IMG/VR virus record: IMGVR_UViG_3300045988_067909
Length of the DNA stretch: 64,000 nt
Origin: a virus
Reading direction: 5' to 3' (one strand)
Shown here one piece after another: positions 12,584 through 47,980 of this stretch. How positions within the stretch are numbered: position 1 is the first letter of the stretch; each line of letters begins with the position of its first letter. The notes under the pieces were generated by a model. It ran no database searches, was not told the DNA's origin, and was given only the letters and a program-made list of their open reading frames with translations. The translations under genes were made by a program, and so were the position numbers.

Positions 12584-12611
12584 CGTTGACTATAGGAGGT
12601 TAATAATAACT

Positions 12612-13169: not shown

Positions 13170-13177
13170 TCTATATC

Positions 13178-13612: not shown

Positions 13613-13623
13613 GAAAGATATAA

Positions 13624-13660
13624 GCCCTAATGGTTATATGCCATTAGGGCCATCTTTTGG
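13624..13660 (+). terminator. rho-independent terminator
   Basis: Stem gccctaatgg/ccattagggc with loop ttatat, followed by catcttttgg. Confidence 0.55.
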
Positions 13661-13704
13661 CTTACTTGAACATCCCAGTAATTCTAAAATAGGAGGTTAA
13701 AACT

Positions 13705-14736: not shown

Positions 14737-14746
14737 GAGGTTTATT

Positions 14747-16054: not shown

Positions 16055-16068
16055 AGAAAGGAGAAGCT

Positions 16069-17445: not shown

Positions 17446-17454
17446 GAGGTAGCT

Positions 17455-19167: not shown

Positions 19168-19189
19168 TTTTTAATCAACCGGAGGGTTA

Positions 19190-19828: not shown

Positions 19829-19884
19829 GTCAATTAGGTGAAACATAAAAATAAGTCTTTATTTTTATTAAAGGTGGTGATGAA

Positions 19885-20682: not shown

Positions 20683-20697
20683 GGAGGAAGTTCTTTC

Positions 20698-29820: not shown

Positions 29821-31010
29821 GTCCTTTAGAGGAGACTTTCTACAATCTAACTAACGTGCAACTAATGATGTCAACAGGGTGTAATCTTAGTTGCAGGTAC
29901 TGCTATCAGGATGATAAGAAGAATAAGAATATGTCTAAAGAAGTTATGGAATCTTTTATAGACTTCTTATGTGATACAAATCCTGATGTCCCAGTTTTAA
30001 TAGATTTCTTTGGTGGTGAACCATTAGTAAACTGGCCGATAATGAAATATGGTTTAGAACTAATGGATGATTTAGGTTTAACTGAAAAGAAACTATATTT
30101 TATGGTATCCACTAATGGTACACTTATTACTGATGAGGTAGCTGAATACTTCAGAAAGTATAATGTCCATATCAATATATCTATAGATGGTACACCAGAG
30201 AAACACAATTACGAACGTAATAATTCTTACGATAAAACTATAGAGGGATTACATAAGTTATATGACCATGGTCTTTGTAGAGACATTACTGCTAGACTTA
30301 CATTCCCAAACAATTATTTTGGTAGTATAGAAGAGCATGTAAGAAGTGTATTAAACTTAGGTATCCCTGAAGTTACATTTGCAGCTATCTTAGCTGGTGG
30401 TATAACTGATGAAGAGTTAGCCACTTATGAGGAATCTATGTATAGAACTGCTATACTTATTCTTAAGTATGTAGAATATGGCTTAGCAGTTATTCCTAAG
30501 TATATGAGAAACTTCATAATGATGGAACACATAAATCAAGATTTCAAACCTAGACAACCATGTCATTTTAAAACCAATAGAGGTATTGTAGTAGATACTG
30601 ATGGGGTATTATTCGGATGCTCTATTGTCCCAAATTCAGATTTTAAAGAATATTCTTCTAAAGTGTATTCAGATACCGTAATTGGTAATGTCAAATACGG
30701 TATAGCTTATAATCGGAATATTGGGGACAAATACCCTTGTACTACGGCAAATGCTAAAAATGACTGTATCAATTGTGAAGCCAAGAGTATGTGTTTACCA
30801 TGTGCTATGGAAAATATGCTATCATCAACAAGAGACTATCATTTAGTTGCTGATGATAAATGTAAATTAATTAAGGCTAGATATAGAGTTGCATTACGTA
30901 TTCATAATTGGATACTACGAAATAAATTCGGAAGTGTTGCAATGTCTAGGCTAAAAGAAAATCATCTTCTTGGGGAAGATAAGTATAGCATAAGTTCATT
31001 AATAATATAG
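29790..31010 (+). CDS. radical SAM / SPASM-type enzyme (rSAM-1)
   Basis: CNLSCRYC (CxxxCxxC), FFGGEPL, and a C-terminal Cys-rich CINCEAKSMCLPCAMEN. The true start may be the ATG at about 29866 (MMSTGCNLS...). Confidence 0.8.
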   Translation: MENDSLRCCISPLEETFYNLTNVQLMMSTGCNLSCRYCYQDDKKNKNMSKEVMESFIDFLCDTNPDVPVLIDFFGGEPLVNWPIMKYGLELMDDLGLTEKKLYFMVSTNGTLITDEVAEYFRKYNVHINISIDGTPEKHNYERNNSYDKTIEGLHKLYDHGLCRDITARLTFPNNYFGSIEEHVRSVLNLGIPEVTFAAILAGGITDEELATYEESMYRTAILILKYVEYGLAVIPKYMRNFIMMEHINQDFKPRQPCHFKTNRGIVVDTDGVLFGCSIVPNSDFKEYSSKVYSDTVIGNVKYGIAYNRNIGDKYPCTTANAKNDCINCEAKSMCLPCAMENMLSSTRDYHLVADDKCKLIKARYRVALRIHNWILRNKFGSVAMSRLKENHLLGEDKYSISSLII

Positions 31011-31044: not shown

Positions 31045-32367
31045 ATGTTTTTAGAGTTTAAAGAAATAGGGAATGATGTAAGAGAAGTAGTATTCTATCT
31101 TACTAATGATAATAATATTGATTGTGACTATCTACCACCTAAGGGTAGACAATATATGTCTACCAGGGTGATAGATGCTATGATAGAGAAGATTACTAAG
31201 ATCTTTAAGGATTATAGACGTGTATATACTATCACATTCAAAGGTGGAGAACCTTTGATGTGTTGGGATAAGATTGTCTATATCATAGATAAACTAAAAG
31301 CTAATAATGTAATATGTAGATACAAACTATATACGAATCTGACTTTGATGACATTAGCTAAAGCTAAAGTTATTAAAGCTAATGCTATAGATGTAGTAGG
31401 TTATCTTGATGGTGAAGTAGAGCATAATAGTAAACATCGTACTGGGTATAAAGAAGCTATACGTGGACTAACTTGTTTACGTGAACTTAATATACTTAAG
31501 ACACATGTAACTATCCATATGACATTAATGGAAGATACTATTAAATACTTTGAAGATAACTTTGATTTCATTAGTAAGCTTGGAGTAAAGAGTATCTTAT
31601 TTGAACCAGCAGAATCTATAGATATAACTGGTAAATTTAAGACCTCTCTAAAGAAAGCTACTAAGTATGCTTATGAGCAATACTTCAAGTTTACTAAGAA
31701 TAGATTTGATGCATTATATCTTATATCATATTTAGATTATATAGTTCCAGATTATAAAGATACATCTGCTGATAGTAACTTCTTTACATCTGGACAACTA
31801 TATGTATCGCCATATGGTAAGTTATATGCTAATAGATTGGCATTGGTTAATGGTATTAGGCATATTGGTAATGTATACAGTAACCAATTAGTATTTCCTG
31901 ATACTATTGATATCCATAGCCACCCAAAATGTCGTGGATGTGTAGCTAAGAATGTATGTCAATCCTGTAGTGACATTGCTACATTCGATTCTAAATATCC
32001 GCATCAAAATATATGTCAACTAAATAGAGCTATTGCTGAAGTCGCAAGAGAGTTTATGGAAGACTGGAAATATAATACTTCTGGAATCTACAATAAGAAG
32101 ATTAAAAAGAATATTGTAGAGTCTACTAGTATTATGAATAGTCTTTATAATAAGCTTAAAAGAACCTATACTATTACTGACGGAAATAGGCCAACCGTTA
32201 AGTCTTTTATGACAGCATATGGTAGAGATTATATTTGTGAGCGCAAAGAGCCTCCTGAAAAGTTGAGAAAACTATATGAAAGATTTAGAATGATTCTCGG
32301 AGGAAACAATGGAAAACTTTACAACAGTGTACAGCAAACCACAAGCTGTAACAATGCTACTGACTAA
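31045..32367 (+). CDS. radical-SAM-like paralog with degenerate cluster motif (rSAM-2, probably catalytically altered)
   Basis: FKGGEPLM and the C-terminal CRGCVAKNVCQSC are kept, but the CxxxCxxC position reads NNIDCDYL, so only one of the three Cys remains (compare TNDCNLACSYC in rSAM-3). Confidence 0.6.
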   Translation: MFLEFKEIGNDVREVVFYLTNDNNIDCDYLPPKGRQYMSTRVIDAMIEKITKIFKDYRRVYTITFKGGEPLMCWDKIVYIIDKLKANNVICRYKLYTNLTLMTLAKAKVIKANAIDVVGYLDGEVEHNSKHRTGYKEAIRGLTCLRELNILKTHVTIHMTLMEDTIKYFEDNFDFISKLGVKSILFEPAESIDITGKFKTSLKKATKYAYEQYFKFTKNRFDALYLISYLDYIVPDYKDTSADSNFFTSGQLYVSPYGKLYANRLALVNGIRHIGNVYSNQLVFPDTIDIHSHPKCRGCVAKNVCQSCSDIATFDSKYPHQNICQLNRAIAEVAREFMEDWKYNTSGIYNKKIKKNIVESTSIMNSLYNKLKRTYTITDGNRPTVKSFMTAYGRDYICERKEPPEKLRKLYERFRMILGGNNGKLYNSVQQTTSCNNATD

Positions 32368-33661
32368 TGATTGTAACTTAGCATGTAGCTACTGCTTTGA
32401 ATCTAATAAGGGTAAAGACTATATGCCAAAAGAAATGGCATTAGATATTCTTAAGGCTACATACAACCAAGTAGACCCAATGGCTGGTATATTCACTTTA
32501 AACATGTTTGGTGGAGAACCATTAATGAATTGGGAGACTTTTAAAGCTGTATGTGATTATGTCTTAGAGAATAACCTTAAGATTCGTATTACTGCAACAA
32601 CTAACCTGACTTTACTTACTGATGAAATGATTGATTATATCGATGAGCTATCTATTCCTGTATTAGTATCTGTAGATGGTATCAAAGAAGTTCATGATAA
32701 GCATAGATGTAATAGTTTCGATAAAGTTATTGAGAATATGAAAAAGCTTATTGATAGAGACTTAGGATATCTTATTGAAGCACGTATGACAGTTGCTCCA
32801 GATACAGCTAAATATATGTATGAATCAGTTAAGATGCTAGTTGACTTAGGTATTAATAATATTGCTAATGTACCAGCATCTGACTTAGAATGGGATGCTC
32901 AATCTATTCAAGATTACAAAGATAATTACGAGAAGATTCTTGATATGTATATCGATATACTGAACGATGAATCTAATAAACGTAATATCTCTCTATATAA
33001 AGTAGACCAAGCATTAAATCTAGCATTAGAGCCTATTAAAGAAGATACTTCTATGTGTAATATTGGCAACCCTAGATGGGTTATTGTAGACTGGAAAGGT
33101 GATATTTGGCCTTGTCCTGATTATCCGACTACAGATAATGTAGATTTGATTGCTGGTAAGATTGGCAACTTCTATACTGGTGTAGATGAAACTAAAGTTG
33201 ACCCTAAGCCTATGGTTGCTACATATGAACTAGAACGTTGTAAGGGATGTGAAGCTATCTCTATTTGTAAGTCTGGTTGTCCTTATGAGAACTATACTAA
33301 GAATGGTAAGTTTAATGAACCAACCATTGGTTACTGCACTTTACAGAAAGCTTTTGTAGAAATCATTAAAGCTTATCAAGATAAGTTACTTGAAGCAACT
33401 AATATCCGTTCTAGACAGCTAAATGTCTTAATTGAAAATCTTAAAGTCAAGAAGTACTATGATGAGAAAGTTAAGACTATTAGTATTACTGATAGAGAAT
33501 TTGGCGTAAGATTAAATCATTTCGTTGAGAAGTATGAGAATCTAAATAATAAAGGTAATGTATTACCTAGTTTTGATACATATTTTAAACATGAGCTAAT
33601 GACTGTGAATGCTATTATTGCAGCATTGGTTGGTAAAAAAGTTGAGTTTGTGGAGGATTAA
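32309..33661 (+). CDS. radical SAM / SPASM-type enzyme (rSAM-3)
   Basis: GGAGG sits 6 nt upstream of the ATG. CNLACSYC, MFGGEPLMN, C-terminal CKGCEAISICKSGCPYEN. Overlaps the upstream gene by 59 nt. Confidence 0.8.
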   Translation: MENFTTVYSKPQAVTMLLTNDCNLACSYCFESNKGKDYMPKEMALDILKATYNQVDPMAGIFTLNMFGGEPLMNWETFKAVCDYVLENNLKIRITATTNLTLLTDEMIDYIDELSIPVLVSVDGIKEVHDKHRCNSFDKVIENMKKLIDRDLGYLIEARMTVAPDTAKYMYESVKMLVDLGINNIANVPASDLEWDAQSIQDYKDNYEKILDMYIDILNDESNKRNISLYKVDQALNLALEPIKEDTSMCNIGNPRWVIVDWKGDIWPCPDYPTTDNVDLIAGKIGNFYTGVDETKVDPKPMVATYELERCKGCEAISICKSGCPYENYTKNGKFNEPTIGYCTLQKAFVEIIKAYQDKLLEATNIRSRQLNVLIENLKVKKYYDEKVKTISITDREFGVRLNHFVEKYENLNNKGNVLPSFDTYFKHELMTVNAIIAALVGKKVEFVED

Positions 33662-33667: not shown

Positions 33668-35386
33668 ATGCCAACACAAGTAAAAAGAGGGAATACTGTT
33701 GAATACAGTATTCCCGATAAAATAGACAGAACCAAAGATAATATAGTAGCTAAAGCACCATTAGTTGCTATAGCTAGTGCAATAGCTGTCAATCTTAAAG
33801 AAGCTAAAGCATTAGAACGTGTACGATCTGGTTTTGGTTCTCCGGAGAATCGTATACGACGTGTAGTTGATGCTGGTGATGAAGTACAACGATTTAGTGA
33901 TAGTATCGTTATAGATGAATCACTTAAAGCATCTAGTATGAATATGCTATTAGGTATGGCATCTGAATTGATAAACAGTACAGTTGGTATTAGTGAATCA
34001 ATGGAGGGATATACTGTAGTTAAATATACCACACCTGGTAGATTTACTTGGAATGCTCCTAGGGGGACTAAGACAGTATTACTAGGTTTATGTGGTGGTG
34101 GTGGATCCATGGGTGCTAGTGGTGAATCTACGAGTTTCAATGAAGCCATTGTTAATGGTGGTAATAATATCTTTATTGATAACTTGCTAGCTGGTGTAAC
34201 TGGTTATCAAGTATCTTTATTTGAAAGCAGATTTGGTTACTATGGTAGACCAGAATCTTCTACTGATTGGTATACTAATCGTTCTGGTATGCACTGGGGT
34301 AGACAGAACTCGGGATTACCTGGTGATTTTATGACTACAGTTTTAAACGTTAAAAGTGGTTCTGCTCAATCTATTGTAGTCGGTGGTCCTGGTGCACCAA
34401 GATGGTATGGTGATGCTAATAGAAAATCTACTCAAGGGTTTGTATACTTAGCATATAAAACAGATGGTGATGATGAACCATATGGTTTAGATAAAGTATA
34501 TACTGTACCTGGCGACTATGAATATACAGTACCAGCAGGTGTACGTAAAATATCTGTAGTCTTAATTGGTGGTGGTGCATTTACTATTAGTGGTACTGTC
34601 GAAAATAAAGTTGAAATCTATGAATATATGGGTCGCTATATCAAACAAGGTGATTTTAGAAATTTCCCAGCTCAAAGCTATAAGCATCTAGATAGAGTTC
34701 TTGATGAATTAAACTATACTGGACCATTTACTAGATATGATAATCCACGTCAAGGTAGTTGGAAACAAACTAGATATAGGGCTCCACATAATTACCAAGT
34801 AGTAGGCTATATTCCATCACACTTACCTGGTGCTAATGGTGAACAATCTAAGTTTGGTGATATCGTAGCTAATGGTGGCGACCGAGATAATATCTCTTAC
34901 ACCACAGATACTGGTTGGAATCTTAATTTTGATGCACAAACAGGACCAACAGGGCGTGGTATGTTTAAAGATAGCATTAACCAAAAAGTTGGCGGTCCAG
35001 GTGAATATAAACGTGTAGTATTAGATGTATATCCTGGGCAAAAGTTTAATGTACATGTAGGACGTGGTGCAAAATACGAATCTGATGGTTCTTTTAAAGC
35101 TAGTGATGGTGCTGTTGGTATAATGAACGGTGATTATCGTGAAACGTCTAGTGGTTTATTTAGAGCTATGGCTCCGGGAGACTTGTATACTGGTGCGACA
35201 TTGAATCTTATGATTAGTAACTTACATGTTTTAAATAAAGCATTCAATGATTTAGAAAATAAGTATTGGGAAAATGACTTATGTAAGACATCTTGTCAAG
35301 TATCTTGCCAGGCTTCTTGTCAAATCGCATGTCAAAACTGTCAATATGATACTTGCCACAATCAAAATTGTGGGGGGTGGTCGTAA
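33668..35386 (+). CDS. large Gly-rich-module protein with C-terminal Cx3C 'CQ-ladder' (candidate rSAM substrate / fibre-like structural protein)
   Basis: Three modules of the type YTTPGRFTWNAPRGTKTVLLGLCGGGGS / YTVPGDYEYTVPAGVRKISVVLIGGGA / GPGEYKRVVLDVYPGQKF. C-terminal tail: LCKTSCQVSCQASCQIACQNCQYDTCHNQNCGGWS. Confidence 0.65.
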   Translation: MPTQVKRGNTVEYSIPDKIDRTKDNIVAKAPLVAIASAIAVNLKEAKALERVRSGFGSPENRIRRVVDAGDEVQRFSDSIVIDESLKASSMNMLLGMASELINSTVGISESMEGYTVVKYTTPGRFTWNAPRGTKTVLLGLCGGGGSMGASGESTSFNEAIVNGGNNIFIDNLLAGVTGYQVSLFESRFGYYGRPESSTDWYTNRSGMHWGRQNSGLPGDFMTTVLNVKSGSAQSIVVGGPGAPRWYGDANRKSTQGFVYLAYKTDGDDEPYGLDKVYTVPGDYEYTVPAGVRKISVVLIGGGAFTISGTVENKVEIYEYMGRYIKQGDFRNFPAQSYKHLDRVLDELNYTGPFTRYDNPRQGSWKQTRYRAPHNYQVVGYIPSHLPGANGEQSKFGDIVANGGDRDNISYTTDTGWNLNFDAQTGPTGRGMFKDSINQKVGGPGEYKRVVLDVYPGQKFNVHVGRGAKYESDGSFKASDGAVGIMNGDYRETSSGLFRAMAPGDLYTGATLNLMISNLHVLNKAFNDLENKYWENDLCKTSCQVSCQASCQIACQNCQYDTCHNQNCGGWS

Positions 35387-36561
35387 TGAAGATATTTATG
35401 ACAGATGAATTATATGACTATATTAAGACTCGACCAGATTTTAATGAATTCCAAACAGCTTATGATAAACTTACTTATGGTGAAACTATAAGAGAAGAGC
35501 TAGAAGCACAGTATAATTCTATGACTTCAGGAGAATTAGCTGAGTATCTTAATAAAGTCAAATCTGAAGTAGCAGATAGACCAGATTTAGTTAGATATAT
35601 AAACTATACATCTGATATATCAGTACAGACTCTAATGACTATAGTTAATGATACTAGTCTACCTAAAAAAGATAAGATGTATGCATTACTAAGATTATTC
35701 ACTTATAGTTATGCTGATGGTATCCATTTTGAATATGTAGTTGATTTTGTCACTATGTATAATGCTATGAGTGCTGAAGAGTTGGCTACATTACCTAGCT
35801 ATATTCATGTAAACTATATTGAATTGAATGGCTATTATTTGTATAAGACTATGCAAGATAACCATGAGACTTTCGATACAACTGCTTATGATAAACTAGT
35901 AGAGCATTATAAAACAGTCAAAGAGAAAGTTAAACCATATTATAGTGATGCTGATGTAATAGATAATATATGGCTTGAAGTCCAAGCTTACTTTATTAGA
36001 CTATTACATAATGACTTAACTAATACTGCTATAGATATCATCTTAGAACGTATTAATCTAGACCATGAAAAGCTAACCAATAAATACAAATATGTATCTT
36101 TAGGTGTCATGTGGCTATATGAAATGTATATGGAAACTAGTTTTAATGCTAGTAACTATCATGGGTTTATCTTATGGGCATTTAAACTATTTAGATATAT
36201 AGATAGTGCATTAGCTGATCATGATAACCTATTTGATGGTTTAAGATTCTATGATAAAGTTAATATTATAGCATTTGCTATTATAGTTAGACGTCTTCTT
36301 AATATTAAAGAAGTCTTCATTTCAATAGTTCAATTACGTTTATTTAACTTAGACTTTACTGATGAATTATTCTTAGCTGGTGAGGGTGTAACTAATGTAA
36401 ATCTTACATCTAAGCCATCTAGAGATGCTATGTTGTCTTTTAAGAATTACGTAGACGTATGGTTTAATAATAATAAGCCTAAGCTAATTCAGCTTAGAGA
36501 TGATTCGGCAACTATGGAAGACTTCCGTGCTATTATTCGTGATTACTTACATTCAGTCTAG
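35386..36561 (+). CDS. hypothetical helical protein
   Basis: I prefer the ATG at 35386 (MKIFMTDELYDYI), with GGGGGGTGG upstream and a TAATG overlap with the upstream stop, over the track's 35353 start. Confidence 0.5.
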   Translation: MKIFMTDELYDYIKTRPDFNEFQTAYDKLTYGETIREELEAQYNSMTSGELAEYLNKVKSEVADRPDLVRYINYTSDISVQTLMTIVNDTSLPKKDKMYALLRLFTYSYADGIHFEYVVDFVTMYNAMSAEELATLPSYIHVNYIELNGYYLYKTMQDNHETFDTTAYDKLVEHYKTVKEKVKPYYSDADVIDNIWLEVQAYFIRLLHNDLTNTAIDIILERINLDHEKLTNKYKYVSLGVMWLYEMYMETSFNASNYHGFILWAFKLFRYIDSALADHDNLFDGLRFYDKVNIIAFAIIVRRLLNIKEVFISIVQLRLFNLDFTDELFLAGEGVTNVNLTSKPSRDAMLSFKNYVDVWFNNNKPKLIQLRDDSATMEDFRAIIRDYLHSV

Positions 36562-36577
36562 GAGGTGATAGTTAATT

Positions 36578-37780
36578 ATGGCAGATATAGAATTTAATAT
36601 GAATAACCGCTATAGATGGACTATCCCTGATATTCCATATGTAGTTAAGAAAGATAATAAAACAACAACTGAGATACCTAATAATGTAGATATAGCTTTT
36701 GATAGACACTTTGTGGATACTACAGTACGTGGATTAGTAGAATCCTATCAAACTTGTGTAGCTATATATGCTGAAATGAAACAGTTGTCATATAATCCAA
36801 CTGTAGATGCTAAGGGTAGAAACTATTGGGAATCTAGTACACCAAAGTATCAACAAAACCAAGAAGCTAATATAGATACAGATCACTCTAATAAGATGAA
36901 CTTTAACAATCCATCTTCTGGAGATCATTTACATCCATCTCGTATTGTAGATCTAAATCAACTATTATCTTCTAGTACACAGGTAGAGAGTAATACATTA
37001 GAGAATATATTAGACTTCTATGGTGTATATCATCCAAGTATTGGTGGTGGGTCTACTAATATAACTGAACGTATCGTTTTAAGTAATGATAATGCAGAGC
37101 CACCTAAGATGGAACTTGTAGATGCATTTAGAGATGCTAATGGTAATACTAAGTTCCCAGCTAGAACTGATGGTCAAAGTTATAATCAACCAATTAAACT
37201 AGAATGGTTTGCTAGACTTAGAGAGAATCTAATTAATACATCTAACTTCTTCATTAAGAATAATGGTAAGTTTTATGATGTAAATGGATATTGTGTTGTA
37301 GGATGTCAAGTAAACTGTCAGTCCACATGTCAATTGACTTGTCAACATAGACAATTGGGTGATGATTTCTTAAATAAAACATTCTTAGAGTGGAATGAAG
37401 ATCTACAAACTATATACAAACTAGGTTGGCAAACATATGACCACCCAGACCATGACCATAATGTATACATATTCTTCTATGACCCATGGGGTAGACGTTG
37501 GATGTATCGTAATACTAGATACTATGGAGATGGTTATTATCTATTACCAGATCAAAATGATATATACTCTATACGTCCTACACATCATGCGGATGATAAC
37601 ATGAATCTAGAGTGGTATCCTGGTGCGCCATATGATAACCCTAAACAATATCATTGGGAGATGGTACGTAATATACATACAGGTAAAAATGACTTGGTTA
37701 ATAAACTAGACCCACATTGGAATGATGCTGGTAATTACTATGTATCAGATGGTTATTGCCATAGCTGTGATAATAGATAG
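36578..37780 (+). CDS. Cys-ladder protein B1 (GCQVNCQSTCQLTCQHRQLGDDF; C-terminal CHSCDNR)
   Basis: RBS TAGGAGGTGATAG. Tandem paralog of 37797..38921; the first ~65 aa and the central FPARTDGQSYNQPIKLEWFARLRENLINTSNFFIKNNGKFYD are near-identical in both. Confidence 0.7.
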   Translation: MADIEFNMNNRYRWTIPDIPYVVKKDNKTTTEIPNNVDIAFDRHFVDTTVRGLVESYQTCVAIYAEMKQLSYNPTVDAKGRNYWESSTPKYQQNQEANIDTDHSNKMNFNNPSSGDHLHPSRIVDLNQLLSSSTQVESNTLENILDFYGVYHPSIGGGSTNITERIVLSNDNAEPPKMELVDAFRDANGNTKFPARTDGQSYNQPIKLEWFARLRENLINTSNFFIKNNGKFYDVNGYCVVGCQVNCQSTCQLTCQHRQLGDDFLNKTFLEWNEDLQTIYKLGWQTYDHPDHDHNVYIFFYDPWGRRWMYRNTRYYGDGYYLLPDQNDIYSIRPTHHADDNMNLEWYPGAPYDNPKQYHWEMVRNIHTGKNDLVNKLDPHWNDAGNYYVSDGYCHSCDNR

Positions 37781-37796
37781 GAGGTGATAGTTAATT

Positions 37797-38921
37797 ATGG
37801 CAGATATAGAATTTAATATGAACGATCGCTATAAATGGACTATCCCTGATATCCCATATATAGTGAAGAAAGATAACAAAATCACTACAGAAATCCCAGC
37901 TGATGTAGATATAGCTTTTGATAGACACTTTGTGGATACTACTGTACGTGGATTAGTAGAATCCTATCAAACTTGCGTAGCTATATATGCTGAGATGAGT
38001 CAGCTGGTATATAATCCACAAACCAACCGTCAAGGTAATAACTACTGGGATGGCAATAATAGATTTAGACAAAACCAAGAGAATAATGTAGACTTAGACC
38101 ATGCTAATAAGATGAACTTTACTAATCCACATAAAGAACCACATAGTTCAGGTACACGTATAGCAAATCTAAATTCTATACTCAATGATCCAGATGGTGT
38201 TAGAGAAGATAATCTAGAATCTATACTAGATTATTATAGAACCTATAATTCTGATACTAATGGTGGTATATCTGTAGACTTGTCTATGAATATATTAAAT
38301 AATGGATTAAAAGCAGAAGCACCAGCATATATACAAGTAGATGCATTTAGAGATGCTAATAGCAATACTAAATTCCCTGCTAGAACTGATGGTCAAAGCT
38401 ATAATCAACCTATAAAATTGGAATGGTTTGCTAGACTACGTGAGAATCTCATTAATACATCTAACTTCTTCATTAAGAATAATGGTAAGTTTTATGATAA
38501 TGGTGGTTTCTGTGTTATAGGTTGTCAGGTTAACTGTCAATCTACATGTCAATTGACCTGCCAGCATAGACAGCTAGGTGACGATTTCTTAAATTATACT
38601 AAGCTTGAACGTTATGAGCATGCTGAGATTATTAAGAAATTAGGTTGGCCAGACTTCCGTGGACGTAATGGTAATGAGTCATTAAACTATTATGACCCCT
38701 GGGGACGTATATGGCGTTGGTATGTATTTGCTAAACAAGGTTATGGTGCATACTATTTAGGTCATGAACCGCATGACAATTATTGGTATTTTGAAAATAA
38801 TATCGGTTGGTATCCTGGTGCTCCGTTTGATAGACCTGCTGGTGTAAACCCAGATGGTAGCATACCAACACCAAAACGTGATCCTGATTATGATCCTTGT
38901 GCTGGTTGTGAAAATAGATAG
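37797..38921 (+). CDS. Cys-ladder protein B2 (GCQVNCQSTCQLTCQHRQLGDDF; C-terminal CAGCENR)
   Basis: The ~45 nt around the start (taggaggtgatagttaattatggcagatatagaatttaatatgaa) are identical to B1; the C-terminal third diverges. Confidence 0.7.
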   Translation: MADIEFNMNDRYKWTIPDIPYIVKKDNKITTEIPADVDIAFDRHFVDTTVRGLVESYQTCVAIYAEMSQLVYNPQTNRQGNNYWDGNNRFRQNQENNVDLDHANKMNFTNPHKEPHSSGTRIANLNSILNDPDGVREDNLESILDYYRTYNSDTNGGISVDLSMNILNNGLKAEAPAYIQVDAFRDANSNTKFPARTDGQSYNQPIKLEWFARLRENLINTSNFFIKNNGKFYDNGGFCVIGCQVNCQSTCQLTCQHRQLGDDFLNYTKLERYEHAEIIKKLGWPDFRGRNGNESLNYYDPWGRIWRWYVFAKQGYGAYYLGHEPHDNYWYFENNIGWYPGAPFDRPAGVNPDGSIPTPKRDPDYDPCAGCENR

Positions 38922-38926: not shown

Positions 38927-39967
38927 ATGAATAACGATTATAAAGAAATATACCTAATGCTTACTGAGGCTTGCCCTAATAGATGTGAGTATTGTTATAT
39001 TAAGGGTAGAGATAACCCTAAGAGTATGACATTTGAACAGATTGAAGAAATAATACGTGTAGAAAAACCTACACGTATTATATTCTTTGGTGGTGAACCA
39101 TTGCTCAAGATAGATCTAATAGAGCAAGTATTAGAGAAGTATTATGGTAAGATTAAATTCCAAGTAGTCACATCTACTGTAGTTAATTTTAAAGAGTTTA
39201 TTGAATTAGATAAGAAGTATCCATTTAGTGAGATACAGTTATCATGGGATGGTTTCTCAGATAAGAACCGTGTTGATACTTGTGGTAATTCTATATCTAA
39301 GACAGTATATGACAATATCCAATATGCTATATCTCAAGGAACTAAGTTTGATGTAAAGTGTGTTATTGGTAATGAGAATATACAAATCTTTGATGAGATA
39401 CATGAGACTTTCGTAGAATGGAAGAAGAAGTATAATGTCAATGGTGAGTTTGTATTAGCACATAGACCATACTATGCACCAGAATATTTAGAGTTATTCC
39501 GTGAGAAGTATAAGAAGACATTCACTCTAGAGAGAATGTATATGGAACATATGAATCGTATTATAGCTATCTTACAAGATGATGATAACTTTGGTTCATG
39601 TGATGTCGGTAAGTATAAGGTTATTACACCATATGGTGAAGAATCTTACTGTACAGCATTATCTCAAGAAGAGACTGAGTTTGATAAGGATATCTTACAA
39701 GCACCATGTACATCTCCAGATTGTAAGATATGTAAATACAAATGTATTTGTGATGGTGGGTGTAGATATGAACGCTATGCTCAGTTTGGTGATAAGTGGA
39801 GAGAAAACCACTTAGATGCTACATGTCAAATGTCTGAAATCATATATACTACTATTAGAGAATGGATAGACTCTTTAGATGATGATGACTATGAAAAACT
39901 ATTAGCTTACGTTAGAAGCTATAAAGATCATTTAGAACGATACCATCAGGAGGTTACTCACGAATGA
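38927..39967 (+). CDS. radical SAM / SPASM-type enzyme (rSAM-4)
   Basis: CPNRCEYC, FFGGEPLL, C-terminal CTSPDCKICKYKCICDGGCRYE. Confidence 0.8.
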   Translation: MNNDYKEIYLMLTEACPNRCEYCYIKGRDNPKSMTFEQIEEIIRVEKPTRIIFFGGEPLLKIDLIEQVLEKYYGKIKFQVVTSTVVNFKEFIELDKKYPFSEIQLSWDGFSDKNRVDTCGNSISKTVYDNIQYAISQGTKFDVKCVIGNENIQIFDEIHETFVEWKKKYNVNGEFVLAHRPYYAPEYLELFREKYKKTFTLERMYMEHMNRIIAILQDDDNFGSCDVGKYKVITPYGEESYCTALSQEETEFDKDILQAPCTSPDCKICKYKCICDGGCRYERYAQFGDKWRENHLDATCQMSEIIYTTIREWIDSLDDDDYEKLLAYVRSYKDHLERYHQEVTHE

Positions 39968-41214
39968 TTGACTTTTTACCTGAGCGTATATATAACGCTA
40001 TTAAAGAAGACCAAGAATATGAAAATATCTTAATGTATAGAGAGAATGAATTCCGTAAGCTAATTACGTTCAAAGAATTCTGTCTATATGATAACGTCTT
40101 CATTAAGAATAAAACAAAATGGGAATACTTTACTGGGACTTTACAGAGCCTGGTTAAAAAGTATTGTCCAGAATATATGACTGAACTAGATATTGCTATC
40201 TCTCCTAGGAAAACTAGAGCAGATTATCTCAATATCTACTACAATGATACTAAGATTGACTTTGAAACTAAGCTATTCGTATTATCTAAAATAGCTGATA
40301 TGTCTAAGTATAAAGATGATTACTTTAACTATCTTGGTATGTATTGTAACTTATATGAAAATATTGCTAAGTCTGATGCAGAGAAATACTCTGCTATCAT
40401 TCATTATACATATATACAATATGCTACATTAGCATATGCTAAGACATTGCCTAAAGATTCACAATGTATCTTTAAGATTAAGAAATATCTAGATACATTA
40501 CGTTTTGGATATGGTAATTTATCTGCTGATGCTTTAAACGTTATCTATATCAATACTTTTGTACAATGTATCACATTAGTTCTAGAAGAACTTGAGAATG
40601 ATATGTTAGTTAAAGAGATGCTAGATGATGTACAGTTACCAGAATCACTATTTGAAGTCCAATATGGTAACTATGGTATTACTAGATTAGCATTATGGTA
40701 TAAACTATTTGAGATTAATTTCTCAGTACGAGACTTTGCTAAATGTAAAGAGCTATTCAATAAGATGGTAGATTTAATTGATGGTAATCTTAAAGAACCA
40801 CAATTACTATTCCGTGGTTTATACGTATATAACCAAAATAATATTCCATATTTTTATGGGATATTAAGATTCGTATGTCGAATGCTCGGTGCATATGACC
40901 CAACTCTTACATTATCTAATCTCTCCGAAGAAGATAAACAATTTATCTCCATATATGATTGGGATTCTAGTGACCTATTGATTTCTGATAGACTTACTTC
41001 GGAGATATTCTATAACTATGCTCTTAGAACTAACTTATGGTTCTATAATTCTGCTGAAGCACTTAAAGCATATAAATATTTCGTTTATGAACAAGCTGGA
41101 TTAGAATTACCATCCGAAGATAGAATTCTTAAACCATTAGATGATTTCTTAAGTTCTTTCTTAGATGATGAACCAGCTGAAGAAGTTGTACCAAACCCTA
41201 AGGGTGATAAGTAA
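39964..41214 (+). CDS. hypothetical helical protein
   Basis: ATGA overlap with the upstream stop; 416 aa; no motif recognised. Confidence 0.5.
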   Translation: MIDFLPERIYNAIKEDQEYENILMYRENEFRKLITFKEFCLYDNVFIKNKTKWEYFTGTLQSLVKKYCPEYMTELDIAISPRKTRADYLNIYYNDTKIDFETKLFVLSKIADMSKYKDDYFNYLGMYCNLYENIAKSDAEKYSAIIHYTYIQYATLAYAKTLPKDSQCIFKIKKYLDTLRFGYGNLSADALNVIYINTFVQCITLVLEELENDMLVKEMLDDVQLPESLFEVQYGNYGITRLALWYKLFEINFSVRDFAKCKELFNKMVDLIDGNLKEPQLLFRGLYVYNQNNIPYFYGILRFVCRMLGAYDPTLTLSNLSEEDKQFISIYDWDSSDLLISDRLTSEIFYNYALRTNLWFYNSAEALKAYKYFVYEQAGLELPSEDRILKPLDDFLSSFLDDEPAEEVVPNPKGDK

Positions 41215-42392
41215 TGTATGATCGTATAGATGCGGTTACATTTAAGATATCTGAATATTGTAATCTAGACTGTGTATACTGTTTTCAAAAATATGATACT
41301 AAGACTAGATATGATGGGTTTACTGATTTTGATCAGCTAGTTAAGTTCTTAAGAAAGATGCCATTAGGGGATACTTTAGAATTCAAAGTTACTGGTGGAG
41401 AATCTAGTCTTCATTGTGATAAGATTAGAAGTGCTTATAGAAAGCTTAAGAAACTAGAGCGTTATAAGAACGTAAACATAGAGTTTACGACCATTTCTAA
41501 TGGCACCAATATAGATGGGTTGACAGAACTCTGGAATGATGGTATACTAAATCCATGGGGATGTAAGATATCCTGGGATGGGGTTTATAGTGCATCTAAA
41601 TCACGTAAAGTAAAAAATAATTCTTATGATGATGAGTATTTTAAAGATATCATTCGTAAGCTAGGTAAGTCTGACTATAGAGATAAAGTCTTAGTTAGAA
41701 CTGCTTTAACACCAGATACTGTAGACGAACTATATCAAGCATATAGATTTGCTATAGATAATGGCTGTACTAAATGGGAATATTATTTACTTAGTGATTG
41801 TGATGAATACAAAGATCCAAAGTTCATAGAGAGACTAAGACCACAACTATATCATATATACAATGATAGTAAAGACTTTCCTGAATCTATTGTAGCTAAT
41901 CTAGATTCTATGGCTTATGTACATACAGACTTATCTGATGCTACAAAGTTAAGATGTATTAGCTGTAGACATCTTGGTCATTTCTTGCATATAGATATAC
42001 ATGGTAATATATACCCTTGTGGATACTTCTCTGATGATTCCTATTATGATGACCAAACATTATCTATAGGGGACATTTACTCGGGTTTAGATAAATATAA
42101 ATTAGAGAAGTTTTGTGATGAGTATAATAATCTTCCCATGTGTAGCATACAAGATGGGTGTGAATGTTTACATTGTTTTGAATGTCCTGCTATTAGTCAC
42201 CTATACTACAACAATATGCAGTATAAGCTAGGACAACAATGTAAGATTAGACACTTAGAACTAGACTTGTATAGAGAGATATTCTCAGACTACACATTCG
42301 ATATGTCTCGTATACAAAGAAACTTTAATGTGTATAATGAACTTGAGTACCACAAGTGTGGATTATGTGAATCCCTTCCATTCAAAGAATAG
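41214..42392 (+). CDS. radical SAM / SPASM-type enzyme (rSAM-5)
   Basis: CNLDCVYC, VTGGESSL, C-terminal Cys-rich CSIQDGCECLHCFECP. TAATG overlap with the upstream gene. Confidence 0.75.
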   Translation: MYDRIDAVTFKISEYCNLDCVYCFQKYDTKTRYDGFTDFDQLVKFLRKMPLGDTLEFKVTGGESSLHCDKIRSAYRKLKKLERYKNVNIEFTTISNGTNIDGLTELWNDGILNPWGCKISWDGVYSASKSRKVKNNSYDDEYFKDIIRKLGKSDYRDKVLVRTALTPDTVDELYQAYRFAIDNGCTKWEYYLLSDCDEYKDPKFIERLRPQLYHIYNDSKDFPESIVANLDSMAYVHTDLSDATKLRCISCRHLGHFLHIDIHGNIYPCGYFSDDSYYDDQTLSIGDIYSGLDKYKLEKFCDEYNNLPMCSIQDGCECLHCFECPAISHLYYNNMQYKLGQQCKIRHLELDLYREIFSDYTFDMSRIQRNFNVYNELEYHKCGLCESLPFKE

Positions 42393-42418: not shown

Positions 42419-42571
42419 ATGACCAAATTAGATAGAGAGCTCAGACGTGCAGTAATTAAAGGTAAGATCCTTAGTACGGCTAAAACTATCATTGTAAATC
42501 CTAAGTTTTTAAGAATAGTTCCTAAAATAATTTCTGTTATCTTTAGACTACTTAAGAAAAGATTTTTGTAA
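42419..42571 (+). CDS. 50-aa basic small protein (below the track's cutoff)
   Basis: GGAGGG sits 6 nt upstream of the ATG. MTKLDRELRRAVIKGKILSTAKTIIVNPKFLRIVPKIISVIFRLLKKRFL; a terminator follows. Confidence 0.35.
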   Translation: MTKLDRELRRAVIKGKILSTAKTIIVNPKFLRIVPKIISVIFRLLKKRFL

Positions 42572-42660: not shown

Positions 42661-44121
42661 ATGGCAAAACTACATGATACCAGTGTAACTGGTAATATTA
42701 ATGCCTCGGGTACTATATATGCTAATGGTAAGGCAGTTGCACCATTAGATCATACTCATTCAGTACAAGCTATAACTGGTTTAGACAAATCAGTAAAAGA
42801 TATAGTAAACGCTACACCTGTAGCTAATGCAACAAATGCAACACAATTAGCAGGTAAGACAGCAGACCAATATGCACTAAAGAGTGATTTAACTGCTTTA
42901 GGTGAACGCTTAAATCAAATTCAGTATTCTATAACTAAAGCATTTAAGTGTCCTAACTACGTATCTTTTAGTTACGATAATAACTTTGTTAAAATTACAT
43001 TGAGTGATAGAATGGCTAATATCACAAATAAAGCAATTATTGTCGAAGATGATACTATGAAGTTTGTAATCAATTTATTTAGTCAATCCAATTTTAGTCT
43101 CTATAATAAGATAATTATTAAAGATAAGGTTGATGTTGATAAATACTACGACTACAGTGTTACTATGCCTACCATATACAGAGTTTCTGATACTACTTTT
43201 ATTGTGGGTGGTATTTGTACAACTAACGGTAATTTATTAGCATCCATCACTCTACAAAGTAATGAACCAATCACTGCTGATGATTTTACTATTAGTGCTA
43301 GAGATCAAGCATATAATCTAAATAATGCAAGTGCCAAAAAGGTTGTATCTAGTAGAGATCTTATTCCTCACTTTGCCGAAAAGTATATAGATACACAAAA
43401 ATTTGGTTATCTATATACTATTAAAAAACCAGGTACTTATGATAGACGTTTAGATCTTCATTTAGACTCTACAACTTCTACTGTATATATTTATACTTTA
43501 AATCCTATGAGTAATATGGCTTTAGGGGTTAATGGTAATGGTATAGTTTCATATAATGCTGCAAATGTTAGAAATGAACCTAGCGTTGCAATTAGCGGAC
43601 TAACTGTATATATTGACTTATCCACAATATCAGATGATTTTGTTATTTTGGGTGATTGTACTGCTACTTATAGCACAACAGGTTTGCTCAGCTCTACTCC
43701 ACCAAAAGATCTACCACAATCTATGGGTAGTAGTATTGATGAAAACCGTGCGTTATCTTTCAATAAAGTCTTAGATTTATTGGGTCGTAGTGTAACCATT
43801 AATGGTGCGATTTACGATACTAAATATGATATAAATATAAACAGATTATTGACATTTCCTGCAACGTATATTAATGACCAATCAGTCACTATAGGCAGCA
43901 TGTATAATACTATTACAGCTAGAGCTAATGGTGGTAACGCTGATACAGTTGGTGGATTATCACCTAACTCGTTTATCACTACTGATAATTTAGCACGTAA
44001 ATACTACTCTAAAGTTGCAGTATACGACAATGATAATCATCTTATTCATCCAGATGGTACTGAAGAATGGATCGAATATCAAAGACCACAAGCGTCTGAA
44101 GATAATATGGATCACTTATAA
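42661..44121 (+). CDS. tail fibre protein
   Basis: N-terminus MAKLHDTSVTGNINASGTIYANGKAVAPLDHTHS, the classic fibre N-terminal/HTH motif type; Asn/Thr/Ser-rich remainder. Confidence 0.7.
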   Translation: MAKLHDTSVTGNINASGTIYANGKAVAPLDHTHSVQAITGLDKSVKDIVNATPVANATNATQLAGKTADQYALKSDLTALGERLNQIQYSITKAFKCPNYVSFSYDNNFVKITLSDRMANITNKAIIVEDDTMKFVINLFSQSNFSLYNKIIIKDKVDVDKYYDYSVTMPTIYRVSDTTFIVGGICTTNGNLLASITLQSNEPITADDFTISARDQAYNLNNASAKKVVSSRDLIPHFAEKYIDTQKFGYLYTIKKPGTYDRRLDLHLDSTTSTVYIYTLNPMSNMALGVNGNGIVSYNAANVRNEPSVAISGLTVYIDLSTISDDFVILGDCTATYSTTGLLSSTPPKDLPQSMGSSIDENRALSFNKVLDLLGRSVTINGAIYDTKYDININRLLTFPATYINDQSVTIGSMYNTITARANGGNADTVGGLSPNSFITTDNLARKYYSKVAVYDNDNHLIHPDGTEEWIEYQRPQASEDNMDHL

Positions 44122-44133: not shown

Positions 44134-47100
44134 ATGGCTAAATTAACTGATATAAAATATGTAATAAGTGCTAGTGGTAGAAGAGAAGAGATTTCTCTAT
44201 ATACCACAAAAGAAGAAGCTGGAGATATATGTAAAGGGTTTAAGTTACCAGATGGTACTAAAGCGTATGCTGCTATTGGTGATACTAAATCTAGACTAGC
44301 CACAATGAAGAGATTTAAAATCCAAGGTAAAGTATATGCTGCTTTAACTGAAGCTGAAAAGAAGAAAACTAAAGTTAAGAAAGTATATATCTTTAAAGCT
44401 GGTAGCCATAGATTTAAAGTACCATTCTGGGCTAAGAAAGTACACTATACACTTTGTGGTGGTGGTAATGGTATCATATCAACCAATGCTCCTATATTAG
44501 ATACTATAGAGAAAGATGGTATTACTGATAATAAAAGCATTATGATGGCTCGTAAGGTTAATGATGTTATGTATGCTACAATACCTTATATGGGTAGAAG
44601 TATAATGGGTACACCATCATCTATGTATGTAGAGAAGGAGTTCGAAGGTGATCCTGATTCTGGTTATGAAACATACACTGGTACGGATGAGACAAGAAGC
44701 ATAAATACTGCAAGTAGAGTGTATAATAATTGGCGTGGCGATGAAAGTAGCTGGATTATGCAGACAACTGATAATAAATCTAAAGGATTTTCTGTATATC
44801 AAGCTGATGCATCTGTCTATAATAATATGGGACAACATATTGAGACTACACCAGTTGTAACTAGAAAGAAAGTTGTTATAGCTCCGACTATGATAAATCC
44901 TGATATTGTAGATGATACCAATTATGATAACTTAGTTGACAGTATACTTGTAGGATTACCTTTGCCACCACCAATGGGCCCAGTGGAAAACGAAGGTGAA
45001 TATGTAAGACTAACAGCTATAAAAGATGATGCATCGTTTACTGTATACAATAAAGGGTTTAAAGCACTATATAATGTATACCCTAAGTCTGATATGGTAA
45101 AGATTACCGATATATCAAAGTTTATCAATGATACAATGGCTAAATATAAAGTCAATCTTGTTGATAAAGATATATATCACGATGAAGATAACTCTCTTAT
45201 GGTAAATTCATTCATCAACCAAGCATATATCTATAATACATATACACCATTTGATAAATTGTATTCTGCTGGTATAGCTATGTATAATGATGGGTCTACC
45301 CCACCATCTAGAACTGATTCTTTGATACAGTCTACATACGATACAGCATTCAATCAATTTAAAGCTAAGTCTACAGAATATAAGCAAAGATATGATAATG
45401 TAACTTACTATATGCGTAAACAGTTCTTAAATGGGACTATGTTTGATTATGATTATATGATGCAGCTTAAAGAAGCTGGTACATTAGATAATATGATCAA
45501 TTCTTCTATGCTATCTAATATGGATTTAGTTGATGGTGCATATGATTTTGCTACAGGGCATCATACATCCCCTAAATTGTCAGAAACACGTTTAGGTGCT
45601 AAGGAAGTTATATTTGATATCCAATGTTTAGATGGTGTAGTTAGACCGCTATCGATTAAGTATGGTGGCTCTCTTGTATTAGGATGGGATAAATACTTTG
45701 ATGATGCATATTGCTATGATATCGAAGATATAGACATCTACAGAGCAGAAGAGTTTACTAAACTATTTAACCCATTAAGTGGCAATATAGTTCCAAACCC
45801 ACTAGAGGGACAAGAAATAACTGGTACATGGGATGTATCTCCTGATGAGGATATAGTTATTGAAGTCGGTACTCATGGTAAGTTATATACTGAAGATATG
45901 GGATTTAAACTAAATAAGTATTTCCATGATCGTGATGCTGATGGTATTTGTATCTTAGAAGTCGAAGGAGATTTCGAAGATATAGATGATATTGATAATT
46001 ATATTAATGATAATATAAGATCTTTAACACCAGATCATTATAACCAAATGGTTATGCTAGACCCTATTAGTCGTGATATGTATCAAAGATATCTCAAATA
46101 TATCAATAACTACTCTGGTGATATAGATTTGTCTGCACAAGACACATTCACAGTTAAGAGATCTGCAGCCAGCCCAGCTTTTGTTAGTAATCTTAAATTA
46201 GTTGATGGTATGGCCACTGATAAAAATATAAATTTATATTATTCTAGTAGAACGCAAAAAGTGGAAAGCTTACCGAAAAGCAGTGATTATACTATTAAAG
46301 TATTTGGCTATGATATTGGTAAGACTACTGATTTATCTTTATTCCATAATTATATTGGTGCTTATGATGGCGTTAAAATGGATATAGCTGAAGATCTAAT
46401 ATCCAATCTATCCGAATATGTAAATTATAGTGGTAATGTATACCAAAGTGTAATACCTGTTAGAAACTACTATGCAGATAAAGAGCATACATTTATATTT
46501 AAAAATGCCAATACAATAAGCTATGCATTTATGCTTGGTGTCATAGACAGTGGGCATACGCCTAAGGTTAAACTAAACTATAATAAGGCTTTAGATGTGA
46601 CTGGTGCTTTAATCTTTACAAACACACAAGAGCTAGATTATAGATGGTATGTGTCATTAGGTTTATATATAAACCCATCTACCGCTAAGAATATTAATGT
46701 TAATGAACGAATGACTATATCATTCCCTAATGAAAATGCTATAAAGAATAAAAAAGTTAAGATATTTAAACCATGGGCTACATACGATCAATCTAAAGCG
46801 TATGTAAAATATATAGTTCCTAAAGATTATACAGCCAAATCTATCATAGGTATCGTACCATTGTTGGATAAGTCTATAGATAATGTATATATTGATATAA
46901 CTAATCTTAAAGACGAACCATATACTATATCTCCTATAGTGTCTAGTACACTCAATAAATTACCAAATGTGCATATTATAGACAATTCTGGTATAGCCGA
47001 GCGCAAATTTAATGGTTTATTTGGTTATGCTAAGAAAAACTATTTAGGGGCTGTTACATTAGCACCAACGGTTATGGATAATTTTGCCAGAAGTTCATCT

Positions 47101-47941: not shown

Positions 47942-47980
47942 CCCAGTATAGTCAATGACTATACTGGGATTTCTTTTGTC
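47942..47980 (+). terminator. rho-independent terminator (cccagtatagtcaatgactatactggg family)
   Basis: Same hairpin as 27021 and 63263, followed by atttcttttg. Confidence 0.65.

Follow-up and report, generated by a model that had tools for sequence, protein, structure and literature searches.

Structure of the B1 and B2 genes

The subject of this analysis is a pair of adjacent genes, B1 (36578-37780, 400 amino acids, aa) and B2 (37797-38921, 374 aa), in a stretch of viral DNA of 64,000 nucleotides (nt), IMG/VR record IMGVR_UViG_3300045988_067909, which is referred to as the window throughout. Both genes lie on the plus strand, as do all features described below unless stated otherwise, with a gap of 16 nt between them, and each encodes a protein with a ladder of regularly spaced cysteines. 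They are part of a cluster with the order rSAM1, rSAM2, rSAM3, protein A, X1, B1, B2, rSAM4, X2 and rSAM5, in which rSAM stands for radical-SAM or radical-SAM-like genes and neighbours overlap or are separated by a few to some tens of nucleotides, with gaps of 5-16 nt among them. A first-pass annotation of the same DNA had described B1 and B2 as a recent tandem duplication with a mosaic pattern of conservation. According to our analysis the mosaic is real, and the duplication is old.

The translation-initiation regions of the two genes are identical over 45 nt, as the first-pass annotation had stated. The sequence TAGGAGGTGATAGTTAATTATGGCAGATATAGAATTTAATATGAA, which extends from the preceding stop codon through codon 9, is found at 36559-36603, where it comprises the X1 stop codon, a GGAGG ribosome-binding site (RBS) and, after a spacer of 11 nt, the initial 26 nt of the B1 coding sequence, and with the same letters at 37778-37822 in front of B2. 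The 14-mer AGGAGGTGATAGTT of the RBS has exact matches in the window only in these two start regions. In many relatives the RBS of B2 reads AAGAGG or TAGAGG, and exact identity over 45 nt is thus not general.

Both genes can be divided into four segments on the basis of a codon alignment of B1 against B2. A conserved N-terminal module, block A (aa 1-74; 36578-36799 in B1, 37797-38018 in B2), is followed by the variable segment B (aa 75-180; 36800-37117 and 38019-38336), which is the fastest-evolving part among B1 orthologs. Block C (aa 181-266; 37118-37375 and 38337-38594) is the ladder domain, and the remainder forms a variable C-terminal domain, segment D (37376-37777 in B1, corresponding to aa 267-400, and 38595-38918 in B2). 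The ladder itself, CVVGCQVNCQSTCQLTC in B1, is located at 37292-37342 and at 38511-38561 in B2. Its sequence follows the pattern CxxGCQVNCQSTCQLTCQ with the spacing C239-x3-C243-x3-C247-x3-C251-x3-C255 and a glutamine after each cysteine but the first, and the layout of the domain runs from a helix through F-Y-D-x-x-G-[YF] to C-x3-(C-Q-x-x)4. The ladder cysteines and glutamines are invariant in 35 of 35 B sequences.

Tryptophan and tyrosine together make up 17% of the C-terminal domain of B1, compared to a background of 6.6%, and this domain ends with C-x-x-C-D-N-R. The extreme tails read CHSCDNR in B1 and CAGCENR in B2, in agreement with the earlier description. Among relatives the last ~10 residues of B2 occur in five versions, all of which retain CxxC or CxC followed by (D/E)N(R/K). 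Neither protein has a sequence match in the PDB or in the tail families of PHROG and Pfam, and no fibre domain can be recognised in either. Two ORFs (open reading frames) of 45 aa on the minus strand (36572-36709 and 37791-37928) were rejected as genes, being mirror images of the duplication.

Mosaic divergence between the copies

Over their whole length B1 and B2 share 62% of their amino acids, and their Jukes-Cantor (JC) corrected synonymous divergence (dS) is 1.03. The codon alignment excludes uniform divergence along the genes. Block A shows 89% aa and 88% nt identity, with proportions of synonymous (pS) and nonsynonymous (pN) differences of 0.33 and 0.06 and a ratio of nonsynonymous to synonymous divergence (dN/dS) of 0.15. 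Block C is conserved even more strongly at the protein level (94% aa and 87% nt identity, pS 0.51, pN 0.04, dN/dS 0.05), and its 86 residues contain identical runs of 45 aa and 25 aa. Segment B has fallen to 38% aa and 51% nt identity (pS 0.64, pN 0.45, dN/dS 0.47) and segment D, which also contains insertions and deletions, to 40% and 53% (pS 0.69, pN 0.41, dN/dS 0.31). The first-pass annotation was correct in describing a near-identical N-terminus and a diverged intervening segment and C-terminal third, with the qualification that the N-terminal block spans 74 residues and not ~65. Its near-identical central ladder block exists as well and is about twice as large as the ~40 aa proposed.

The same two blocks are conserved among orthologs. 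In blocks A and C sliding-window dN/dS is 0.00-0.14 for 17 B1 orthologs and 0.03-0.23 for 11 B2 orthologs; block C is nearly invariant across the 35 B sequences, and both blocks are conserved in all 12 cluster representatives of the family. Judged from these substitution patterns, the conserved blocks are held mainly by purifying selection on the protein. The mosaic reflects a domain architecture under unequal constraint, in which two modules are conserved and two have diverged since the duplication.

Residues 199-228 (37172-37261 in B1, 38391-38480 in B2) are the most conserved stretch at the amino acid level, yet show the highest synonymous diversity among orthologs, with a pS of 0.63-0.79 compared to 0.3-0.45 elsewhere. 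This excess may be due partly to the six-fold-degenerate codons of leucine and arginine, and partly to imported or converted patches.

Age of the duplication

The duplication of B1 and B2 is old, not recent. Synonymous sites are near saturation in the variable segments (JC dS 1.4-1.9), and even within blocks A and C a third to half of them differ. An orthologous B1 and B2 pair is found in at least 14 other contigs of ~260 kb (L001, L002, L005, L006, L008 and the nine IMG/VR contigs L015-L023). Site patterns in genome quartets were classified as concerted where the two copies within one genome agree in a state that neither copy of the other genome has; for segments B and D, 31-137 sites support orthology and 0-13 are concerted. 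High dS, the shared orthologous pairs and the orthology-type site patterns together show that B1 and B2 had separated before the sampled two-copy genomes split from one another. The label "recent" given in the first-pass annotation is contradicted by a pS of 0.33-0.69 depending on the segment and by the wide occurrence of the pair: neither low synonymous divergence nor absence of the pair from related genomes, by which a recent duplication would be recognised, was observed.

The B family is represented by 11 clusters at 90% identity among 5.8 billion proteins and by 9 representatives among 1.84 billion proteins, all of them from metagenomes. In eight contigs of a sister clade only one B gene, of the B1 type and with 399-405 aa, lies between X1 and rSAM4 (L009 9025-10242; L010 4003-5220; L024-L029 about 4000-5215), in which blocks A and C are as conserved as in the two-copy genomes. 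This state is compatible either with an unequal crossover at the tail that removed B2 or with an ancestral single copy. Most of the single-copy genes end with ADCSGCENK, a tail which is also present on some B2 genes.

Gene conversion and recombination

Some exchange between the two copies nevertheless appears to have taken place in individual lineages. For distant genome pairs, block C contains 9-11 concerted sites, compared to 4-8 orthology sites and 1-3 sites in the homoplasy control; the ratios of concerted to control sites are 11:1, 11:1 and 9:2 (P 0.003-0.03; one-sided binomial P 0.003 for 11:1), an excess of few sites from genome pairs that are not independent. Only L001 and L008 encode Ser249 by AGC, in each of their two copies, all others having TCN, and both copies of these two genomes contain DVNGF, a mix of B1 and B2 states. 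In the spacer before the ATG, both copies of the clade of the window (clade I) have TTAATT and both copies of L005 have TTC. Block C of the L005 B2 gene is nearest to that of the L005 B1 gene (27 of 258 nt differ).

These events are sporadic and lineage-specific, and gene conversion is not the main force that keeps the blocks alike. Three observations lead to this conclusion. Copies in the same genome still differ at 26-36 of the 258 nt of block C, compared to means of 27 within B1 and 38.6 between B1 and B2 of different genomes, and in the window B1 and B2 differ at 34 nt, while its B1 is only 11-16 nt from other B1 genes. Identical tracts were not longer than expected by chance in 8 of 10 tests (permutation of codon differences, blocks A and C, five genomes; P 0.04-0.85), the longest identical run between same-genome copies being 48 nt. 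Finally, single-copy lineages are equally conserved. The proposal of the first-pass annotation that gene conversion maintains the core therefore stands for occasional events, such as the concerted sites of block C, the AGC codon and the DVNGF motif, and not as the main maintaining force.

Exchange among related phages is also visible. In block C, 26 of 258 nt differ between the B1 genes of the window and of L006, mostly in codons 200-221, though the genomes are 97% identical otherwise, and such excess synonymous diversity among close genomes points to imported patches. Between near-identical genomes, identity in the 3' third of B2 drops to 87-89% from a background of ~97%, and pS is raised too; allele exchange fits these differences better than local adaptive change. 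Two hybrid genes were found on short contigs, one joining the N-terminal half of B1 to the C-terminal half of B2 between X1 and rSAM4 (L003 52-1161, P0006; contig of 1509 bp) and one with the structure B2-B1-B2 (L004 32-1156, P0005; contig of 1160 bp, coverage 1.7). They were set aside as proof of recombination, with their short, low-coverage contigs and breakpoints at the longest identical runs of the paralogs (40-48 nt), and may be either real recombinants or assembly chimeras.

The ladder domain in other phage proteins

A profile search identified proteins of ~200 aa whose C-termini align with aa 205-261 of B. The alignment of these regions with hhalign has a probability of 99% (E 7e-18), and no other part of the proteins was aligned. 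The tails of the ~200-aa proteins end with ...CQVxCQxxCQLxCQSCQYNTCHNQNCGGWS, and the same is true for protein A of the window (33668-35386), a Gly-rich protein of 572 aa with weak matches to tail proteins, whose C-terminal ladder CKTSCQVSCQASCQIACQNCQYDTCHNQNCGGWS starts at 35282. Block C is the only part of B with homology to other phage ladder proteins encoded beside radical-SAM/SPASM genes. A resemblance between block A and the N-terminal parts of protein A and the ~200-aa proteins (a look of the type R-G...Y-x-I-P-D) was considered and rejected, since the hhalign alignment was confined to aa 205-261 and a BLAST comparison within the window gave no match.

Members of the ladder family are found almost exclusively on phage contigs. 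Their tail motif CHNQNCGGW was detected on 64 contigs of IMG/VR and, among 185,579 species genomes, in just one, and a radical-SAM-like ORF lies within 3 kb of 53 of 61 ladder ORFs in IMG/VR. Contig L011, from a different jumbo-phage lineage, encodes a ~200-aa ladder protein among five radical-SAM genes and X-like genes. A third jumbo-phage lineage encodes ladder proteins similar to protein A (L038 655-1875, IMGVR_UViG_3300008152_000003; L043 16-876; L066 3481-4506), all of which end with ...CHNQNCGGWS and are followed by rSAM4-like and X2-like genes. The ladder of L038 consists of ~29 consecutive Cxxx units, mostly CQxx, while L043 and L066 have 7-8, which indicates that the repeat number is evolutionarily plastic; over the whole family it ranges from 5 C-x3 units in B1 and B2 to about 29. 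One of the ~200-aa relatives, from a Myoviridae metagenome-assembled genome (MAG), is listed in NCBI nr under the automatic source name "Six-cysteine peptide SCIFF". None of the family members has a recorded function, and no homolog of B1, protein A or the 200-aa ladder proteins was found among GenBank phages (50,697 records; megablast and tblastn).

The sole match of the ladder tail in a cellular genome is on a 5-kb contig (L030, CALISH010000122.1) of an uncultured Solobacterium MAG, which encodes an A-type protein of 572 aa at 1649-3367. Either a phage fragment was mis-binned here, or the contig hints weakly at the host. The identifiers of the IMG/VR contigs suggest that these may come from human-microbiome samples.

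The radical-SAM neighbours

Three radical-SAM or radical-SAM-like genes precede protein A, namely rSAM1 (29790-31010), rSAM2 (31045-32367, 440 aa) and rSAM3 (32309-33661), and two follow B2, namely rSAM4 (38927-39967) and rSAM5 (41214-42392), which has a Cys-rich C-terminal half. For all five, PapB is the best NCBIfam match (E 6e-16 to 1e-58, 58-199 bits at a cutoff of 340), and across the PapB, SCIFF-maturase, QhpD and CXXX-repeat-maturase models their E-values range from 1e-16 to 1e-59. Of the five, rSAM3 has the highest PapB score (199 bits), and its best PDB match is CteB (5WGG, E 3e-24). Four of the five combine CX3CX2C at residues 16-31 with C-terminal SPASM-like cysteine clusters; the motif starts at residue 31 in rSAM1 and at residue 16 in rSAM4. 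The canonical CX2CX5CX3C is present in rSAM3 and rSAM4, at residue 266 in the latter. The most conserved gene of the cluster is rSAM4, which is also found in other ladder-carrying phage lineages.

The fifth, rSAM2, lacks CX3CX2C and keeps a SPASM-like CxxCx5CxxC. It is retained in all relatives with a dN/dS of 0.07-0.08 and, judged from its residues, may serve as a partner or scaffold without catalytic activity. CteB and PapB have their radical-SAM cysteines at residues 104-126, behind a leader-binding RRE domain, that is, a recognition element for peptides that are made on the ribosome and modified after translation, or RiPPs (PMC10177961; PMC8326336). The alignment of rSAM3 to CteB starts at CteB residue 97, and with CX3CX2C at residues 16-31 the phage enzymes are thus RRE-less.

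Two further genes of the cluster, X1 (35386-36561, 391 aa; start set by orthologs, the ORF listing having a TTG start at 35353) and X2 (39964-41214, 416 aa), are distant paralogs (21% identity in an alignment of 316 aa, E 9e-7), all-alpha and without a family match. The low-confidence helical-repeat model of X2 (AlphaFold2 predicted local distance difference test, pLDDT, 58) gave only generic tetratricopeptide-like repeats in a Foldseek search of the PDB (E at least 0.07, TM-score at most 0.3). X1 and X2 are candidates for substrate-binding adaptors of the RRE-less enzymes.

Between the window and the distant L005, rSAM3 and rSAM4 differ less than their neighbours at synonymous sites (pS 0.23 and 0.18 compared to 0.4-0.58), with 95-98% nt identity. 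This suggests either recent exchange between clades or constraint at the nucleotide level.

Comparison with known systems

With the SCIFF systems (CteA/CteB, Tte1186a/Tte1186) the phage cluster shares a Cys-rich C-x3-C core adjoining a radical-SAM/SPASM enzyme, the ladder-tail relative that was named SCIFF, and the similarity of rSAM3 to CteB and to the SCIFF-maturase model (E 1e-37). It differs in that the phage carriers have 200-600 aa and not ~45 aa, with an internal ladder in B1 and B2, that the enzymes lack the N-terminal RRE and reach 130 bits at an equivalog cutoff of 425, and that the system is encoded here by a lytic-type jumbo phage and there by Clostridia. One feature by which ranthipeptide systems are recognised, an adjacent radical-SAM/SPASM enzyme with CX3CX2C and auxiliary-cluster cysteines, is present in four of the five neighbours, at scores below the equivalog cutoffs.

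CXXX-repeat targets (TIGR04114, TIGR04117, TIGR04118; maturase TIGR04115) likewise consist of a variable number of tandem Cys-Xaa-Xaa-Xaa units beside radical-SAM/SPASM genes. B1 matches these three target models weakly (E 0.003-0.017), with scores of 17.4 (cutoff 35), 16.1 (50) and 15.6 (20), and rSAM3 matches TIGR04115 at E 2e-32 with 113 bits (cutoff 350). We take these systems to be bioinformatic predictions from bacteria with no solved product.

PapA/PapB, the freyrasin system with six CX3D thioether rings, provides the best NCBIfam match of all five enzymes, and the periodic C-x3 motif of its substrate PapA is modified repeatedly (PMC10177961). The acceptor aspartate of PapA is absent from the phage ladder, where position i+4 is the next cysteine and the neighbouring glutamine is invariant; moreover, the substrate would be a protein here and is a peptide there, and the scores of 58-199 bits stay under the cutoff of 340. 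A precedent for a protein substrate is QhpD, a radical-SAM/SPASM enzyme which installs several Cys-to-Asp/Glu thioethers in the protein subunit QhpC and not in a RiPP (PMC8326336). Its model is matched by rSAM1 (E 4e-33) and rSAM3 (E 1e-36); unlike QhpC/QhpD, the phage locus has no quinohaemoprotein amine dehydrogenase (QHNDH) genes, reaches 127 bits at a cutoff of 453, differs in the acceptor residues and belongs to a phage.

The evolutionary pattern of B1 and B2 can be compared with tandem tail-fibre or receptor-binding paralogs, which share modules for common partners and have divergent modules that are swapped by recombination. B1 and B2 likewise lie in a fibre-gene region with cassette-like divergence of neighbouring fibre genes; they are unlike such paralogs in having no detectable fibre domain and an unusual second, internal conserved block. 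Clustered radical-SAM/SPASM-type genes are also known from other large phages (Campylobacter CP220/CPt10, Ralstonia RP12/RP31, Erwinia and Salmonella jumbo phages), with PHROG 1802 matched at E 1e-42, and among the 11 radical-SAM genes of CP220 there is a module of five whose function the authors left undecided (PMC2853527). The identity to these proteins is only 23-29%, and no ladder ORF was found beside the RP12 genes. A full-text literature search yielded no paper in which radical-SAM enzymes act on structural proteins of phages or in which SCIFF-like motifs are described in phages. An old pair of paralogs under modular constraint with occasional conversion is an ordinary evolutionary pattern; as far as this search and those of GenBank phages show, the system itself is an undescribed variant.

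Proposed role of the ladder proteins and alternative explanations

We consider it probable that B1 and B2 are old paralogs which serve as protein-sized substrates, with a constrained recognition-plus-core module, a pattern on which short gene-conversion events between the copies are occasionally superimposed. In such a scheme the ladder domain would combine a built-in recognition sequence with the core, and aa 181-238 would replace the usual pair of leader and RRE. The RRE-less radical-SAM/SPASM neighbours would turn the ladder cysteines into intramolecular thioether cross-links of the ranthionine type. As acceptors, side-chain carbons of the invariant glutamines (i+1 and i+5 being candidates) or of neighbouring residues seem probable; threonine, aspartate and glutamate are used in SCIFF, PapB and QhpD (PMC8326336). 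The cross-links would then staple part of a protein that is associated with the virion, probably with its fibres, and has Trp/Tyr-rich distal domains; protein A would be processed likewise at its C-terminal tail. The variable parts have diverged since the duplication and are still exchanged among related phages. The first-pass annotation had suggested a substrate whose core must stay compatible with an enzyme, which is plausible and better supported than before by the constraint on block C (dN/dS 0.05), the five radical-SAM neighbours and the ladder homology.

Several points weigh against this interpretation. The role of B1 and B2 as substrates, the thioether chemistry, the pairing of enzymes and targets and the localisation in the virion are all read from sequence and genomic context. 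For B1 and B2 no family of Pfam, PHROG or NCBIfam reaches the threshold; the SCIFF precursor model TIGR03973 does not match the ladder regions of B1, protein A or P0016 at E-values up to 10; and the AlphaFold2 model of B1 (12-sequence alignment) has a pLDDT of 34, too low for use. All matches of the five enzymes are far under the curated equivalog cutoffs, so that they might catalyse other reactions (formation of C-C or ether links, epimerisation, or conversion of cysteine to formylglycine), and with no RRE their recognition of a substrate would be without known precedent here. With regard to conversion, the excess of concerted sites is small and non-independent, as described above. Finally, block A equals block C in conservation, which our interpretation does not account for, and hhalign detected no homolog of it beyond the B family.

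With regard to the evolutionary pattern, a recent tandem duplication whose blocks are kept alike mainly by ongoing gene conversion would account for the identical RBS and start, for the concerted sites and lineage-specific states common to both copies, and for the longest identical codon run in block C of the window, which is marginally long (16 codons, P 0.04). We regard this explanation as very improbable: it is largely refuted by the dS, with a pS of 0.33 and 0.51 between the copies inside the very blocks concerned, same-genome copies differ in block C barely less than B1 and B2 of different genomes, most identical tracts are of chance length, the orthologous pair is shared by the at least 14 contigs, single copies are equally conserved, and the RBS of B2 is unlike that of B1 in many relatives. 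It is also rather unlikely, if less so, that the main cause of the mosaic is positive selection that drove apart the variable parts (aa 75-180 and aa 267 to the end), for example in a receptor-binding arms race, a form of the diversifying selection offered in the first-pass annotation. Consistent with such selection, dN/dS is higher in the variable segments (0.31-0.47 between the paralogs, up to 0.75 among orthologs), the C-terminal domains are rich in tryptophan and tyrosine, the B2 tail occurs in five versions and the surrounding fibre genes diverge in a cassette-like manner. However, no window of 20 codons among orthologs exceeds a dN/dS of 1, the maximum of 0.75 being located in B1 aa 149-188, and values per segment are 0.05-0.47. 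Whole-gene dN/dS of B1 and B2 between the window and L001 or L005 is 0.11-0.18 and thus lower than that of the two downstream fibre genes (0.27-0.48), and the largest differences between close relatives, in the 3' third of B2 and block C of B1, come with raised pS, which indicates imported sequence.

A different function of the ladder has somewhat more in its favour, and we still consider it unlikely. The cysteines could have a structural role in a fibre-like protein, as a metal-binding, Fe-S-binding or disulfide motif, while the radical-SAM enzymes act elsewhere, on another protein, a small molecule or DNA. Phage fibres often employ repeated metal-binding residues, no RiPP-precursor model matches B1 or B2 above threshold, the enzymes have no RRE, and other jumbo phages such as Ralstonia RP12 carry radical-SAM genes with no ladder ORF found alongside. 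What argues against it is that ladder proteins adjoin radical-SAM/SPASM genes in divergent lineages (L011, L038, L043, L066) and at 53 of the 61 IMG/VR loci, that the enzymes are closest to maturases forming cysteine thioethers, and that the (CQxx)n unit with its variable copy number resembles the CXXX-repeat targets of radical-SAM enzymes. Metal binding would, in addition, leave the invariant glutamine after the cysteines unexplained.

The mosaic marks ~86 residues that are unable to change and that correspond to a module common to phage proteins encoded beside thioether-type radical-SAM/SPASM enzymes. If the enzymes do modify the ladder, this would be RiPP-like cross-linking of whole phage proteins without the usual recognition by leader and RRE, and ranthionine chemistry would have been repurposed for the stapling of viral structural proteins. 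It would also give a purpose to the long-unexplained radical-SAM clusters in large phages of anaerobic or microaerophilic hosts. As a more far-reaching and only tentative extension, we suggest that an uncultivated clade of phiKZ-like jumbo phages may use a battery of RRE-less radical-SAM/SPASM enzymes (four apparently active, one degenerate), perhaps aided by the helical X1 and X2, for stapling A, B1 and B2 as full-length, fibre-associated virion proteins through ladders of thioether links, with the ladder as a portable cassette that can be terminal (protein A and the ~200-aa proteins) or internal (B1 and B2) and has 5 to ~29 repeats.

Phage context and further features of the locus

The window has a GC content of 33% and encodes split RNA-polymerase beta-type subunits (PHROG 2962 and 2987), as is common for phiKZ-like jumbo phages, and we assign it to an uncultivated phage of this type with a genome of about 260 kb. 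Its closest isolates are Yersinia phiR1-37 and jumbo phages of Bacillus and of Erwinia, with 24-29% identity. Tail-fibre-like ORFs are located at 10487-22272, 29203-29820 and 42661-44121, and the cluster of radical-SAM and ladder genes lies between them. Directly after rSAM5, at 42419-42571, there is a Lys/Arg-rich ORF of 50 aa (MTKLDRELRRAVIKGK...), which is found at the same position in all related loci.

In L006, which is ~97% identical to the window elsewhere, identity falls to 75% near 43000-43200 in the fibre-like gene of 486 aa (42661-44121) and to 59-79% across the 3' part of a gene encoding 1266 aa (46000-47800). These drops represent cassette-like replacement as is typical of host-range determinants. 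The only strong terminator-like hairpin found in the plus-strand intergenic gaps follows immediately 3' of this 1266-aa gene, at 47942-47968. It has a perfect 12-bp stem with 6 GC pairs and a T-rich tail on both strands, and by its structure it is probably a bidirectional terminator that ends the block of radical-SAM and fibre genes.

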